Below, piece after piece: positions 2,689-56,876 of a stretch of DNA of 64,000 nucleotides; within the stretch, counting starts at the first letter, position 1; the number at the start of each line of letters is the position of its first letter. Source of the stretch: Cyanobacteria bacterium SOY_34_metabat_3 (GTDB lineage: Bacteria > Cyanobacteriota > Cyanobacteriia > Cyanobacteriales > Microcoleaceae); assembly GCA_031399265.1 (NCBI GenBank), contig JANNOR010000280.1, positions 15,378-79,377 of the forward strand, read 5' to 3'. The position numbers and the translations under genes are program-made. The notes under the pieces were generated by a model. It did no database searches and was not told the origin of the DNA. It saw only the letters and a program-made list of their open reading frames with translations.

Positions 2689-3936
2689 ATGAAGGTTGTA
2701 GTTCTCAATAATTCTGATAGTGAAGGCGGTGCAGCCAGGGCAGCTTACAGGCTGCACCAAGGTTTGCAGGGGATTGGCGTGTCTTCGCAAATGCTGGTGA
2801 AAAATAAGAAAAGCGGCGATCCGAATGTCATATTGTCACAGAATGGCATTGCGAATAAGTTTGATAAGATTATTTCAACTATATCTAACTCGCCATTGCG
2901 GCTTTACCCTAAGAGAAATCCTGTGATATTTTCTCCCCAATGGTTGCCAGATTCCCTAGCTGCGAAAGTTGCCAAAATCCAACCAGATATTATTAATTTG
3001 CACTGGGTTTGCGGGGGTTATATGCAAGTAGAAACCATTCCCAAGTTTAATAAACCCCTAGTCTGGACGCTTCACGATATGTGGTCTTTCACGGGTGGAT
3101 GCCACTACAGCGAAGAGTGCGATCGCTACACTAAATCTTGCGGTAGCTGTCCGCAACTTCACAGCAGCAAAGAGTCCGATCTGTCGCGGTGGGTGTGGGA
3201 GCGGAAAGCGAAAGCTTGGAAAAATATTGACTTAACTGTGGTTAGCCCTAGTGCTTGGTTGGCTAAATGCGCTAGTTCTAGTTCTTTGTTGAAAGATTGT
3301 CGAGTTGAGGTAATTCCTTACGGCATTGATATTAAAACGTACAAACCCATAAATCGTGAATGGGCGCGAGAAATCCTGAATTTACCTAAAGATAAACAAA
3401 TTGTACTCTTTGGAATTGCAGGGGGGACTAGCAACCGCTGGAAAGGATTTAACCTGCTAGTATCGGCTTTGCAAAGCCTGAGCAAGTCGGGCTGGAAAGA
3501 TCGGATAGAGCTGCTGGTTTTTGGTTCTTCTCAACCGGAAAATGCCGTTGAACTGGGTTTTAAAGCTTACTATTTGGGTAATCTAGCAGATGATATCTCC
3601 CTAGCAACAGTTTATGCAGCAGCAGATGTGTTCGTCGCTCCTTCTGTTTACGATAATTTGCCAAACACGGTGATGGAAGCTGGAGCCTGCGGCATTCCTA
3701 GCGTCGCATTCAATATCGGGGGAATGCCGGATCTGATCGAACACTGCTCAAATGGCTACTTAGCGAAACCTTATGAAACAGAAGATTTAGCTACAGGTAT
3801 TGCATGGGTACTGGAAAATCGCGATCGACACCAACAACTCTGCGCTAGGGCGCGTCAGAAAGTGGAACAAGAATTCACTTCAGACATACAAGCTAGGCGC
3901 TATTTGTCTCTTTTTTCCGAACTTGAGGGCGCTTAA
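2689..3936 (+). CDS. GT4 family glycosyltransferase
   Basis: GGAARAAYRLH, WTLHDMWSFTGGCH, DNLPNTVMEA. Confidence 0.9.
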   Translation: MKVVVLNNSDSEGGAARAAYRLHQGLQGIGVSSQMLVKNKKSGDPNVILSQNGIANKFDKIISTISNSPLRLYPKRNPVIFSPQWLPDSLAAKVAKIQPDIINLHWVCGGYMQVETIPKFNKPLVWTLHDMWSFTGGCHYSEECDRYTKSCGSCPQLHSSKESDLSRWVWERKAKAWKNIDLTVVSPSAWLAKCASSSSLLKDCRVEVIPYGIDIKTYKPINREWAREILNLPKDKQIVLFGIAGGTSNRWKGFNLLVSALQSLSKSGWKDRIELLVFGSSQPENAVELGFKAYYLGNLADDISLATVYAAADVFVAPSVYDNLPNTVMEAGACGIPSVAFNIGGMPDLIEHCSNGYLAKPYETEDLATGIAWVLENRDRHQQLCARARQKVEQEFTSDIQARRYLSLFSELEGA

Positions 3937-3950
3937 AACAGCACCGCCCA

Positions 3951-4709
3951 TTAAACCAACTGTTTGCGCTGCTCTGGCGCAGCAAAAAAATTAGACTTTC
4001 TAAATTGTCCGTTTTCTTTAACAAACACCATGTCTACTTGAGCTAAAGCTCCGTCGAGGGGACGGATGTAACCCCCAAAAATATCGTAGGTGGCAAATCC
4101 GCGCTCTTTCATATAACTGACAACATCGTATAATTGCGGGCCCCCGACAAAGAATTGAAACAGGGATACTTCCAGTATGACTACTTCTGTATCCTCAAGC
4201 ACCTTGCGACAGCCGTCTAAAACATTAAGCTCGGCGCCCTGCACGTCAACCTTCAATAAATAAGGCGCTTTTAAGTTTCTTTCCCGGCACAAATCATCAA
4301 CGACAACCAGAGGAATTTCCCTGGGAACACCGTCGGCAACACTACCTTCTGACTCGTTGAGAGTAGAAGATCCGTAAAGTTGAGGGTGAACATTAATCGT
4401 AATATTTCCCGCTTGAGAGCCGGCGCCAGCCATGATATACTGAGCGTTGTATTTTTGACAAATTTCTTTTAAATTTTTCTCGTATTCGATCAAAGGCTCT
4501 ACCAGCAAAAAGTTGGTTTGGGGGAATTTTTCGTACAATTCAAAAGTCCCGTAGGCAACGCCGACATCTATAACGGTTTCTGGTTGAAAACCCAACTTGA
4601 TGAACTGATCGAGTACGCCGTACATAGATGTTCTCATGCCTCGACGCGGGAGATCGAATCCCAAAGGCTTAAGTATTTTGTACGCTATCTTTTTGAGTAT
4701 TTGCCTCAT
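3951..4709 (-). CDS. FkbM family methyltransferase
   Basis: VIDVGVAYG SAM motif, LLKVDVQGAEL; opposite strand to the rest of the cluster. Confidence 0.88.
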   Translation of the reverse strand: MRQILKKIAYKILKPLGFDLPRRGMRTSMYGVLDQFIKLGFQPETVIDVGVAYGTFELYEKFPQTNFLLVEPLIEYEKNLKEICQKYNAQYIMAGAGSQAGNITINVHPQLYGSSTLNESEGSVADGVPREIPLVVVDDLCRERNLKAPYLLKVDVQGAELNVLDGCRKVLEDTEVVILEVSLFQFFVGGPQLYDVVSYMKERGFATYDIFGGYIRPLDGALAQVDMVFVKENGQFRKSNFFAAPEQRKQLV

Positions 4710-4753: not shown

Positions 4754-4980
4754 GTCAGGAACTCAGGGCTTAAGCCACTGAGCTTGTAAGAAATTACAAG
4801 CTGTTCTGACCAGACCCCTTTCACGAGGAGACGTTATTTAGGTCACGACACCGGCGAATGCGACGCTAGTTTTGGGCTCTGTCATCTGCAATTAAACAGT
4901 TTTAAAGTCACTGAAACAGTGTTGCAGGTCTAACAAGCCTTTATAACCAGGTCGAAGCGAACATTACCCCGAAAGGGAGA
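4754..4980 (+). ncRNA. IscB-type omegaRNA scaffold (HEARO-like)
   Basis: Nested helices: 4833-4842 with 4938-4947, 4886-4891 with 4922-4927, terminal CCC-GAAA-GGG hairpin; 3' boundary approximate. Confidence 0.72.
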
Positions 4981-54417: not shown

Positions 54418-54699
54418 TTAATAAACCTCATCATGGCTTCCAATATCAACCAAGACAATTAAATCATCACCTGTTGTAGCATCTTTTTTGAAAGCAAAAA
54501 TGATTCGACAATCATAAGCCACTGAACAAGACCATAAACCGTCCAATTTCCCCGTCAACTTATGAGATTTCAAAGCTGGATTAAAAGGATCATCGCCCAA
54601 CAATCTTACAACCTCTAATATCTGGTCTTGTAATTGGTGATTTTTTTTGATTAATCGCTTAAAACGTTTTTTGAAACACGGATCGGTTGTTAAAATCAT
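54418..54699 (-). CDS. RelE/YafQ-type type II toxin (complete copy)
   Basis: LKSHKLTGKLDGLWSCSV, DIGSHDEVY. Confidence 0.88.
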   Translation of the reverse strand: MILTTDPCFKKRFKRLIKKNHQLQDQILEVVRLLGDDPFNPALKSHKLTGKLDGLWSCSVAYDCRIIFAFKKDATTGDDLIVLVDIGSHDEVY

Positions 54700-54772
54700 T
54701 CTTCCTCATCCTCCAATAAATATGACTTCAAATTCTCACAAGCTACTCTCATGGCTGTTCTCGGCTATACAG
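54588..54772. repeat. 185-bp direct repeat, copy 1 (antitoxin 3' end plus toxin 5' end)
   Basis: Collinear, substitution-diverged copy of 56373-56557. Confidence 0.88.
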
Positions 54773-54879
54773 AATTAAAAAAAATGTATGTACAGAATCG
54801 CCAAGGCGCTTTACTCATCACCCAGTTCGCGCAGTAGAAGGGAGCAATTACCAAAGCGCCTTAATAGCCTTGGCGGTTG

Positions 54880-55062
54880 CTATAACTTGATAAGTCCTCT
54901 AGCAATTTGCTCAACAAGTTCCGAGCGAGAAATGCGGTATCTTTTAGAAAAAGCATCCAGTTTTTTGATAGCCGTTTTGGTAAGGCTAAAGGCGCAGCTT
55001 TGTTTGATCTCGTCGTACATCTCTGGCTGATTTCTCATGCTTTTATGTTTGGGTTTAGCCAT
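54880..55062 (-). CDS. Ribbon-helix-helix (CopG-like) protein
   Basis: AFSLTKTAIKKLD..ISRSELVEQIARG; AGGAG RBS 8 nt before ATG 55062. Confidence 0.75.
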   Translation of the reverse strand: MAKPKHKSMRNQPEMYDEIKQSCAFSLTKTAIKKLDAFSKRYRISRSELVEQIARGLIKL

Positions 55063-55123
55063 GTCAAAAACTCCTTTCTGATTCAGAAAACAAAATTTCA
55101 GCTTGATCCGACGTGAAAATGAC

Positions 55124-55152
55124 AAAAAAAAAGGAGTTCTTGATAGGACTCC
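55124..55152 (-). terminator. Intrinsic terminator upstream of the RHH gene
   Basis: GGAGTCCTATCAAGAACTCC followed by T9 on the minus strand. Confidence 0.75.
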
Positions 55153-55320
55153 CTGGCGAAGGTTGCATTATTCAATTTTTGGTTGTGAAGCGCTGGAAGA
55201 ACCAAACGCTTTCCCGACAAGATAGTCGAGTTTTTTGAGAAGGTTATGATTGCTAAGTTTGAATATTAGCACTTGCTTTGCGAAGCAGGGAGTGCCGGAA
55301 TTCCTAAGCTTTGGGCTTAT
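55124..55320 (-). ncRNA. Candidate structured sRNA or attenuating leader (~197 nt)
   Basis: Sigma70-like promoter upstream, several consecutive hairpins, and terminator GGAGT..ACTCC-T9. Confidence 0.55.
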
Positions 55321-55327
55321 AAAACTC

Positions 55328-55356
55328 ATCATAACACAAACAATCAAAATCGGCAA
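55328..55356 (-). promoter_or_regulatory. Sigma70-type promoter
   Basis: TTGCCG, 17-bp spacer, TATGAT. Confidence 0.7.
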
Positions 55357-55622
55357 GATTTTTGTAATTTATTCTTTAAGTCTTTGCTAGATTGCTTTTA
55401 GCTCTTAATAAGAGCATGGTAGTGGTTGAGGACTTAACTTTTAAAGCGGTTCCTCCTGTTATTACGGCATACTCAATGAATCCTCAATATTCAAGAAATT
55501 GGTTTGTTAATTGTTGCTGCTATACCTCATGAAAGCAGGAACCGCTGTATTTGCGATACGCTTTCCACCCTGTGCATATTAGGTCAAGTTTCTCGATTCA
55601 GCATCAAGGTTAAAAATACCAT

Positions 55623-56318
55623 TTAATCGTCATTCAGTATCATGTCAAATCTTTTTTTAAGCGTTTCAACTACCTCCTCTTCACTCCTACGATGTTTTAG
55701 GATCTCACTGAGTTCTGTTCTAGTATATTCTAACAAATCTTTTATCGAGTGTATTCCTGCTCTTTTTAGAGGATTATAGGCACGAACTGACAACTGTAAT
55801 TCTTCAATAGGAAATAAAGATAGAGGATCGGCATCTTCATTTTCAGTCTCTTCACTTTCTATATTTTGATTATAAGGATCGGTATCTTCATTTTCAGTGT
55901 CTTTACTTTCTATATTTTCCTTGTTTAGTATATTTGCCAATTGATCCAAACACAACTCGGATGACTTTTTTTCCAATAAATAAACATTGCTAGTATAAAG
56001 TTCCATTGTACCTTGAGAGTTTTTTCCAGGAAAACGTCGTTCCGTAACGCTAATAAATCTCCAACCCAGATTTCCTAATTCATTTAATAATTCAATTCTA
56101 TCTATGTTATACTTCTCATCTTCGTAGGCCCCTGTAATTACAAAATGAGGAGTAAAGTTAGACAAACCGTAGAAATTTGTTATTGGTAATGTCTTATAGT
56201 AAAATTCAATATATTGATATTTGGCTTTAATCGCTACTTCTTCGACCAAAGATCGTAGTTCAGATATGAATTCTTTGTCTGTCACAAAAATATTTATTTC
56301 ATCTGAATTGTCATTCAT
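55623..56318 (-). CDS. Fusion of a DUF4177-like N-terminal domain, acidic linker and RNA polymerase alpha-CTD-like domain
   Basis: C-terminal PIEELQLSVRAYNPLKRAGIHSIKDLL..SEEEVVETLKKRF; N-terminal LNELGNLGWRFISV. Confidence 0.8.
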   Translation of the reverse strand: MNDNSDEINIFVTDKEFISELRSLVEEVAIKAKYQYIEFYYKTLPITNFYGLSNFTPHFVITGAYEDEKYNIDRIELLNELGNLGWRFISVTERRFPGKNSQGTMELYTSNVYLLEKKSSELCLDQLANILNKENIESKDTENEDTDPYNQNIESEETENEDADPLSLFPIEELQLSVRAYNPLKRAGIHSIKDLLEYTRTELSEILKHRRSEEEVVETLKKRFDMILNDD

Positions 56319-56352: not shown

Positions 56353-56484
56353 CTAGAGATTATTATAGCAGCGATCATCACCCAACAATTCTAAAACCTC
56401 TAATATCTGGTCTTGTAATTGCTGATTTTTTTTAATTAATCGCTTAAGACTTCTTTTGAAACTCGGATCGGTTGTTAAAATCAT
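56353..56484 (-). pseudogene. Truncated RelE/YafQ-type toxin (43 codons)
   Basis: MILTTDPSFKRSLKRLIKKNQQLQDQILEVLELLGDD then diverges and stops. Confidence 0.8.
56362..56370 (-). promoter_or_regulatory. Extended -10 promoter for the alpha-CTD fusion gene
   Basis: TGCTATAAT immediately inside the cassette junction, about 45 bp before the ATG. Confidence 0.55.
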
Positions 56485-56557
56485 TCCTCCTCATCCTCTA
56501 ATAGATATGACTTCAACTCTTCAAAAGTTCCTCTCATGGCTGTTCCCGTCTCTACAG
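56373..56557. repeat. 185-bp direct repeat, copy 2
   Basis: See copy 1 at 54588-54772. Confidence 0.88.
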
Positions 56558-56699
56558 CCCTAAAGACTTCCTGAGTATTAGCTAAAATTTCAGCCCGCCG
56601 ATTTTCAATCCGTCGCTTGCGGATAAACTCAAAAAACTGATCCTGATCTTCTACTGATAAACTTTCGACCTGATCGATAATTTCTTGTAAAGTCATCAT
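56481..56699 (-). CDS. Putative antitoxin (complete copy)
   Basis: 72-aa ORF with acidic tail; ATGA overlap with the toxin start. Confidence 0.75.
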   Translation of the reverse strand: MMTLQEIIDQVESLSVEDQDQFFEFIRKRRIENRRAEILANTQEVFRAVETGTAMRGTFEELKSYLLEDEEE

Positions 56700-56876
56700 A
56701 CAGCCTCCTTTAAAGTAAAATCAACTAAAGACTTTGCCTCCGCCAAAACCCGATCCTTAATCAAACGACTTAATCCTTGTTCCGTCACAATATCTGCCTT
56801 ACCACCTAGTATATCTTGCAAATCCATCAATAGCCCCCCTGGGAACCAATGCGAAATTTTCTGTAAATCATAGTTT
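56696..56876 (-). pseudogene. 3' remnant of a minimal nucleotidyltransferase (MNT) gene
   Basis: Manual translation YDLQKISHWFPGGLLMDLQDILGGKADIVTEQGLSRLIKDRVLAEAKSL; in-frame stop just upstream. Confidence 0.65.

Follow-up and report, generated by a model that had tools for sequence, protein, structure and literature searches.

The closest described counterparts of the locus reported here come from several kinds of system. Leader-derived, terminated RNAs and attenuators include SreA and SreB, the OFF-state riboswitch products of Listeria, and the CI RNA that phage P4 derives from the leader of its early operon. Plasmid copy number is controlled by a ribbon-helix-helix (RHH) repressor together with an RNA in pMV158 (CopG and RNAII), and by antisense-driven attenuation in pIP501 and pT181. 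RNAs are also encoded at the ends of insertion sequences, such as RNA-OUT of IS10, the 5' untranslated region of IS200 and the bridge RNA of IS110/IS621. Here, we analyzed a stretch of 64,000 nt from Cyanobacteria bacterium SOY_34_metabat_3 (contig JANNOR010000280.1, positions 15,378 to 79,377; hereafter the window) and found, ahead of its RHH gene (rhh; 54880-55062, minus strand; 60 amino acids; Pfam RHH_3, 8.8e-5), a real, conserved, terminator-ended non-coding RNA of ~200-250 nt. It is an uncurated family of familiar kind that matches no Rfam family, and literature searches found no description of the RNA or of the RHH-recombinase module that carries it in relatives. We give about even chances to the reading that this is a leader-type RNA, whose terminator passes only read-through transcription to rhh and whose terminated product accumulates as a small RNA (sRNA).

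Like the leader-derived RNAs, the locus has a promoter, ~200 nt of conserved RNA and an intrinsic terminator directly before the regulated gene; in both cases the terminated product accumulates as a small RNA while the downstream genes are nearly silent, and P4 is likewise a mobile element. Unlike them, the window RNA has no ligand-binding architecture, no Rfam match (C4/CI included), no repeated target sites of the seqA/seqC kind and no antiterminator. The resemblance to plasmid copy control lies in a short regulatory RNA and a leader terminator that accompany a small RHH gene of the CopG kind, and in the occurrence of relatives of the module's recombinase on plasmids. In contrast to those systems, the window RNA is co-oriented with rhh and is not a countertranscript, the protein downstream is a tyrosine recombinase rather than a Rep protein, and nothing in the plasmid collection matches the RNA-bearing elements. 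A promoter scan of the plus strand within 55063-55356 called no promoter-like site, so that a countertranscript promoter of the pT181/pIP501 type was not found.

The sequence-only reading of this DNA had proposed a promoter, a series of hairpins and a terminator upstream of rhh, and all of these motifs are present on the minus strand where it had placed them. The promoter-like site (TTGCCG-17-TG-t-TATGAT; 55356-55328, minus strand, as for all features of the unit) is also called by a promoter consensus scan, with 9/12 matches plus the TG extension, and the 17 nt between its -35 and -10 hexamers fall within the 16-18 nt of sigma-70-type promoters. It is followed by hairpin 1 (TAAGC/GCTTA; 55319-55315 / 55309-55305), hairpin 2 (GCACT..AGTGC; 55295-55269), hairpin 3 (GCTAA/TTAGC; 55270-55266 / 55256-55252), which has two bases in common with hairpin 2, a CGAC/GTCG hairpin (55228-55225 / 55218-55215) with a conserved core GAC/GTC at 55227-55216, and an AAGCG/CGCTT hairpin (55211-55207 / 55192-55188) equivalent to the AGCGTT/AACGCT hairpin of homologues. 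The body of the non-coding RNA (55153-55320) thus comprises hairpin 2, the two conserved hairpins and the conserved single-stranded blocks AACTTAGCAaTCATAACcTTCTC and ACAaCCAAaAAtTGAATAA. Its intrinsic terminator (55124-55152) consists of GGAGTCC-TATCAA-GAACTCC (55152-55133) and T9 (55132-55124), that is, a GGAGTCC/GAACTCC stem interrupted by a single C.A mismatch, closed by a 6-nt loop and followed by U9. Folded alone, the terminator reaches -8.6 kcal/mol, compared to -8.7 to -11.5 kcal/mol in relatives. It is absent from the output of a terminator scan because the scan counts the stem as 5 bp with a 10-nt loop, which exceeds its loop limit of 8 nt. The 203-nt RNA as a whole folds better than its shuffled versions (z = -2.95; 1 of 200 shuffles was as good). 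Between the terminator, whose end lies 62 nt ahead of the ATG, and the start codon of rhh lies a leader of 61 nt (55063-55123), which ends in the ribosome-binding site AAAGGAG and is predicted to be unstructured (fold z-score, +1.05). As the earlier reading had held, no separate promoter was seen between the terminator and the ribosome-binding site: a promoter scan of 55063-55123 called no sigma-70-like promoter.

That reading had also recognized no known family, and Rfam 15 models, among them riboswitches, C4/CI, STAXI, int-alpA and the cyanobacterial Yfr and NsiR families, bore it out: at gathering thresholds they gave no match here, and at E values up to 10 the matches were at chance level only. 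On five intact relatives, the models gave nothing at E up to 1. The 62-amino-acid open reading frame (ORF) that overlies the RNA (55168-55356) had been held not to be a product of the promoter. It has no Pfam match, and no ORF is conserved in position or length across the homologues; a small-protein reading of the region was rejected on both counts, and this ORF should not be annotated as a gene.

Conservation of the unit was followed across 36 loci, gathered by scanning genomes and metagenomes and by looking up RHH homologues. The region from ~55610 to the end of the RHH gene can be aligned in Microcoleus spp., Kamptonema, Leptolyngbya sp. FACHB-671, which carries two copies, and a metagenome-assembled genome of Nostocaceae. 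Cultured carriers are Microcoleus sp. B3-D7 and LAD1_D3, Kamptonema sp. UHCC 0994 and the Leptolyngbya strain. With a covariance model (R1), the region was recovered from 22 different sequences; window 55122-55299 scores 171 bits, and no further copy turned up within the window. Nor did the model find the RNA beside more distant RHH-recombinase pairs (L020-L029, L032), and the RNA is therefore confined to an RHH subfamily at ~64% identity or more. Upstream of the RHH gene of one such distant pair (L024, ~4080-4170), TGTCTAYT iteron-like repeats stand in the place of the RNA. RHH homologues themselves number 134, and every named source is cyanobacterial.

Among the aligned homologues, the terminator stem is paired in 94-97% (16-22 sequences), its loops vary freely and the U-run is retained. 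Pairing reaches 95-98% in the GAC/GTC hairpin and 96-97% in the AGCGTT/AACGCT hairpin, which in relatives is enclosed by an outer stem of 4 bp (TGGC/GCCA). The conserved structure that the sequence-only reading had called for was hence found, in the form of two hairpins and a terminator stem kept across 22 distinct homologues, but the fold it had drawn survives only in part: paired cells make up 58% in hairpin 1, 68% in hairpin 3 and 71% in the outer stem of hairpin 2, hairpin 2 is variable among homologues and wholly deleted in L002, and covariation is weak. Its promoter is likewise kept in part: the -10 box has the form TAnnnT at a fixed distance in 17/17 sequences aligned over it, and the -35 box is not conserved. 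Overall, 86-90% of cells are paired, compared to 29-42% with the 3' partners slid. The long unpaired blocks of the RNA are nearly invariant across the 22 sequences, and the most conserved stretch of all is the leader, with 98-100% identity within the window clade.

Transcript data were drawn from assembled, unstranded contigs of public metatranscriptomes, which derive from relatives rather than from the window organism; we infer the strand of the RNA from the orientation of its terminator. At L006, a relative with an intact module, three biocrust runs (X35, X36 and X38) yielded one contig each of 200-211 nt over the RNA, spanning 1647-1854 (depth 30), 1644-1854 (depth 7.8) and 1655-1854 (depth 10). 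Coverage just upstream, at 1582-1622, is 0. Across rhh and the spacer behind it (~1870-2700), coverage is 0 in X35 and X38; in X36, 1901-2110 is covered by low-depth contigs of a ~90%-identical relative only, and this coverage drops to 0.1-1.3 at the 92% threshold. Recombinase mRNA of related copies reaches a depth of 2-10, and the RNA stands at 1-5 times the recombinase mRNA depth. In soil run X30, depth rises to 51 in a contig of 136 nt over window 55167-55275, compared to ~2 on both flanks. The homologue in soil Microcoleus runs X24-X27 and X30 carries a miniature inverted-repeat transposable element (MITE) other than that of the window, with terminal repeat AGACCTCTTGCAA, between the positions equivalent to window 55167 and 55152, and the RNA body still accumulates although this MITE separates it from the terminator; coverage in X24-X27 is flat and uninformative on transcript ends. 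Runs X6, X8, X9 and X33 were judged DNA-like from their long, flat contigs. Expression was seen in desert-crust, soil and freshwater communities, and an ice metatranscriptome covers rhh and a related copy. A non-coding, terminator-ended unit directly upstream of the RHH gene, as first proposed from the window alone, is thus both conserved and seen as a discrete RNA in relatives.

Contigs that pass the terminator occur as well. In X34, a contig on L006 1651-1900 crosses it and overlaps a second contig (1872-1969) that runs into rhh, and an X22 contig spans window 55013-55132, which takes in the 5' end of rhh, the leader and the complete U-run. Transcription can therefore arrive at rhh by read-through. 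Contigs of the window type and nearly identical to it cover rhh in X21 and X22, and 55216-55459 plus the MITE in X32.

From these data we propose that transcription would start in the left end of the element, at the conserved TATAAT-type -10 box, further upstream, or at both, and would then traverse a conserved stretch of ~200 nt that contains the two conserved hairpins. The greater part would end at the intrinsic terminator 62 nt before the RHH start codon, and the stopped product would accumulate as a discrete RNA of ~200-250 nt. A minority of transcripts would read through and carry rhh, so that the terminator could hold RHH expression down, as an attenuator or insulator. Read-through would then be the main source of rhh mRNA, and its level would probably matter biologically.

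In intact relatives, a module of ~3.2 kb comprises a non-coding left end of ~540 nt, an RHH gene (70 amino acids), a spacer of ~500 nt, a tyrosine recombinase of 614-662 amino acids and a terminator. The recombinase is identified by Pfam Phage_integrase, an XerC/D-like box II and a PHROG integrase match. Homology between intact copies stops after the final terminator of the module, and the intact module recurs in unrelated surroundings. RNA and recombinase co-occur in every intact element, and an RHH gene followed by a large recombinase-type ORF, not by a toxin, was found in 19/36 loci, including every locus with an intact RNA-bearing element. The proteins of the window cassette, which the sequence-only reading had suggested as partners of the RNA, are therefore not its conserved partners: ancestrally, the RNA and the RHH gene precede the large tyrosine recombinase, which has been lost in the window. 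Relatives of the recombinase are common on small cyanobacterial plasmids; a search of PLSDB plasmids gave no DNA match to the RNA plus RHH gene, and neither inverted repeats nor a clear att core could be defined at the element termini from eight copies. If confirmed, the module would be a compact, previously undescribed RHH-recombinase unit with its own RNA; we take it to be mobile or plasmid-derived.

The spacer contains a hairpin of 15 bp that shows several compensatory changes and stands between an A-run and a T-run, with a TATAAT box after it; the arrangement lies at ~2505-2560 in L006 and at the same place in L004, L005, L008, L010, L011, L017, L019 and L023. By its sequence, the hairpin with its T-run and TATAAT box is a candidate terminator plus recombinase promoter. 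A spacer ORF of 117-121 amino acids may not be a gene, since its start codon is lost in L010 and it is cut short in L008.

The left end also extends upstream of the RNA. A conserved segment with a palindrome, GCTCTTATTAAGAGC (55399-55413), occupies 55357-55443 (minus strand); it is single copy in the window, is kept in 12 loci (L010 3611-3697 and L014 152-251, for example) and is duplicated in tandem in L010. In biocrust run X36, its L010 and L014 homologues reach a summed depth of ~150, and some contigs continue into the RNA body. The segment could represent another small RNA, or else belong to the 5' portion of a longer precursor. The outer left part of the conserved non-coding region (..GAGAAACTTGACCTAATATGCACAGGGTGGAAAGCGTATCGCAAA; 55551-55610, minus strand), delimited from an alignment of left flanks, directly adjoins the next conserved segment in relatives and is a candidate region for an upstream transcript start; a promoter scan called no canonical promoter in it. 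A MITE-like insertion with 21-nt terminal inverted repeats (55442-55549 in the window, no strand assigned) interrupts the conserved left region in the window clade alone. It is present in the window and in all members of its clade with upstream sequence except L002, and is missing at the homologous point in L004, L005, L007, L014 and L017. Metatranscriptome contigs skip it, with joints from 55441/55443 to 55548/55560. Short, high-depth MITE contigs also appear alone in the metatranscriptomes, as expected of a multi-copy repeat.

Several observations weigh against a leader RNA that starts at the conserved promoter and controls rhh by termination. The first concern the start. The 5' ends of the L006 contigs (1644-1655) adjoin an L006-specific sequence, TGTTATAAT, and lie ~30-40 nt upstream of the start expected near 1683; contigs in X32 (55216-55459), X35 (record 1) and X36 (record 9) cross the conserved promoter; the unit may therefore exceed the proposed length or undergo processing. 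In X35 and X38, contigs of relatives start in or before the sequence homologous to GGTGGAAAGC.., and no L006 contig begins ~7 nt downstream of the -10 box, where a second, internal start is possible. The start near 55320 put forward in the sequence-only reading is consequently probably not used, or not the only one, as the contigs of relatives begin ~40 nt upstream or run across the promoter. At the other end, all three contigs from biocrust break off at L006 1854, immediately ahead of the terminator hairpin; these ends may reflect strain microdiversity, and contig assemblies cannot give exact RNA 3' ends. Expression of rhh might also begin elsewhere: an X21 contig with the exact window sequence is confined to 54820-55106, as would fit initiation of rhh at a site of its own near 55109. 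Upstream of that site, the leader has a weak -10-like box (CATTTT/TATTTT), a hexamer that takes the TAnnnT form, by eye, in roughly 10/17 homologues.

Structure and sequence conservation supply further objections. Covariation is weak, with 4/27 pairs changed on both sides. One pair, at the base of hairpin 2, is CG in seven sequences, GC in seven and UA in one. The covariation score of 0.082 exceeds the 0.060 of shuffled alignments (0/500), for sequences that are related and an alignment (A4) that was fitted to the model. RNAalifold on alignment A2 returned a covariation term of -0.64 and missed the terminator because of gap placement; new alignments of the region (A3 and A4) were therefore made. 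Neither A2 nor A3 revealed, on inspection, a conserved segment complementary to the 5' arm of the terminator, and RNAalifold finds no alternative fold; GAACU/AGUUC pairing with the terminator amounts to 5 bp in three homologues only. Hence, of the earlier proposal that the RNA gates rhh by read-through, the read-through itself is seen in contigs, but regulated gating gains no support from an antiterminator. Within the window clade, the RNA body is 90-93% identical, no better than the neighboring MITE. Lastly, the motif GCTAA/TTAGC is enriched 3-4 fold at conserved positions, and part of the conservation may therefore reflect protein binding at the DNA level.

A possible, if doubtful, alternative to the leader reading is that the RNA is the product of an independent sRNA gene with its own promoter and terminator, trans-acting or encoded in cis and working in trans, while rhh uses a weak promoter of its own. 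Its invariant single-stranded blocks would pair with a target in the element or the host, for example to silence the recombinase or rhh, or to provide immunity against a second copy. A discrete RNA with zero (X35, X38) or near-zero (X36) rhh coverage from the same copy, at 1-5 times the level of recombinase mRNA, is what such a gene would produce, and the near invariance of long unpaired blocks across 22 sequences, the X21 contig that begins at 55106 and the accumulation of the RNA where a MITE parts body from terminator are also in its favor. However, no canonical rhh promoter was called, and read-through contigs exist. Complementary runs of at least 9 nt (exact or with GU pairs) within the element are restricted to the ribosome-binding site, a palindromic ATTTATAAAT motif with two occurrences, and the loop of the spacer hairpin, where the match is partly conserved. 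In the first of these, the AAAGGAG ribosome-binding site of rhh is complementary over 11-12 nt to the 3' arm and U-run of the terminator, in relatives too (12 nt counted in favor of an sRNA), but this is trivial because the 5' arm of the terminator resembles a Shine-Dalgarno sequence. In the last, the match of block UCAUAACUUU to the loop is 10 bp long in L004, L006 and L010 and 6-8 bp long in L017, L019 and L023; it is missing from L005 and broken in L008 and L011. No target with a compensatory change was found. A matrix of cognate versus non-cognate duplex energies for the variable hairpin-2 region against +950..+1100 lacks a diagonal signal and showed no specificity, and co-evolving antisense pairing was dropped; long-window duplex folding for targets within the element was uninformative.

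It is unlikely that the conservation is mainly a property of the DNA, with the left end serving as an array of recombinase or RHH binding sites (arm-type, operator or att-like) and the transcript as a by-product. The excess of GCTAA/TTAGC argues for this: six of the eight intact elements have 6-9 copies and L019 and L023 have 4-5, compared to ~2 expected. The sites occupy conserved positions in the non-coding parts of L004-L023, both left end and spacer (~-357, -260, -197, +249, +350, +367, +428 and +446 relative to the RHH ATG), and one of them is the invariant AACTTAGCA block inside the RNA. Judging by sequence, they are candidate binding sites for the RHH protein or the recombinase. Palindromes at positions unlike those of a transcript (GCTCTTATTAAGAGC upstream, and TTCAATTGAA in the leader of most homologues), a leader that is highly conserved yet predicted to be unstructured, and the weak covariation point the same way. 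Nevertheless, a conserved stem with a freely varying loop and a U-run, together with a TAnnnT box at a fixed distance, are signals at the RNA level, and a discrete RNA is seen in relatives. DNA sites and an RNA function can, moreover, coexist.

A riboswitch-like leader that senses a metabolite or protein and gates rhh by regulated antitermination is very unlikely: the order of promoter, structured leader, terminator and gene is typical of one, and terminated products accumulate as in the riboswitch OFF state, but there is no Rfam match even at E up to 10, no multi-stem junction, no conserved alternative pairing with the 5' arm of the terminator (A2, A3) and little covariation, and the repressor gene of a recombinase element would be an atypical riboswitch target.

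By analogy with the bridge RNAs of IS110 elements, the abundantly transcribed left end (this RNA and the upstream segment) might, with a very small probability, provide an RNA cofactor or guide of the unusually large tyrosine recombinase that sets its site choice or directionality. RNA and recombinase co-occur in every intact element, the RNA is expressed at least as well, and element ends and integration sites could not be defined. As in the insertion sequences, an RNA of ~200 nt with structure sits in the non-coding left end of a compact recombinase element, upstream of the recombinase. Unlike theirs, the recombinase of the module is of the tyrosine type, neither DDE nor DEDD, and the unpaired blocks of the RNA are invariant between elements at different sites rather than dependent on target or donor. 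Inspection found no complementarity of the RNA to element ends or flanks. With a tyrosine recombinase, invariant blocks and no cognate-specific complementarity, the RNA was rejected as a bridge RNA or guide of the IS110 type.

In the window, the RNA is carried by a truncated derivative of the module. The window clade (L001-L003, L013-L016) keeps the left end and the 60-amino-acid RHH protein only, and has lost the recombinase and spacer. By alignment, the RHH domain of the window is complete, but the protein lacks the 10-amino-acid C-terminal tail of the intact elements. Directly preceding the left end in the window, L001-L003, L013 and L016 (all members with upstream sequence) is the gene for a 231-amino-acid protein (55623-56318, minus strand) with a weak DUF4177 match and a clear C-terminal domain of the RNA polymerase alpha subunit (alpha-CTD; Pfam 1.2e-14); the gene contains a 44-nt tandem duplication at 55824-55918. 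The DUF4177/alpha-CTD gene, the non-coding left end and the RHH gene make up a 1.6-kb insert bracketed by 192-nt direct repeats (54588-54779 and 56373-56564; 87% identical), which are copies of an antitoxin/YafQ-toxin junction. On one side (56353-56699) an intact antitoxin of 72 amino acids is joined to a toxin truncated to 43 amino acids; on the other (54418-54780) an antitoxin remnant is joined to an intact YafQ-family toxin.

The small RHH gene of the window adjoins a YafQ/RelE-family toxin gene, as in type II toxin-antitoxin systems with RHH antitoxins. A pairing of the RHH protein with YafQ as a type II system was rejected, because this adjacency occurs only in the window, L001 and L002 (a different ORF follows the RHH gene in L003) and because the remnant of another, non-RHH antitoxin (54700-54780) lies between the RHH and toxin genes. 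The window RHH protein is therefore not the antitoxin of the neighboring toxin. Next to the remnants of the toxin-antitoxin pair lies a fragment of an MNT-type nucleotidyltransferase gene (56696-56830, minus strand). The same insert is flanked in L003 by a complete MNT-like gene and an ORF of 126 amino acids (979-1302 and 3215-3595); by eye only, the ORF resembles a HepT/DUF86-like toxin. These MNT/HepT-like flanks suggest nested insertions into a toxin-antitoxin hotspot.

Two observations lie outside the RNA and its module. Just outside the element in L006 (304-726, minus strand) and in L008 (2309-2608, minus strand) is an ORF of 99-140 amino acids without a Pfam match. In biocrust metatranscriptomes, its coverage peaks at a depth of ~1900 and greatly exceeds that of its surroundings. 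Elsewhere in the window (4754-4967, plus strand), a full-length HEARO RNA (Rfam RF02033) scores 130 bits against a gathering score of 83; HEARO is the RNA partner of IscB/HNH elements.

If confirmed, the RNA ahead of rhh would be an uncurated RNA family, with ~22 distinct members found here in at least four cyanobacterial genera. It would also offer a concrete way into the question of how such elements hold down their recombinase and regulator in ecologically important mat- and crust-forming cyanobacteria.

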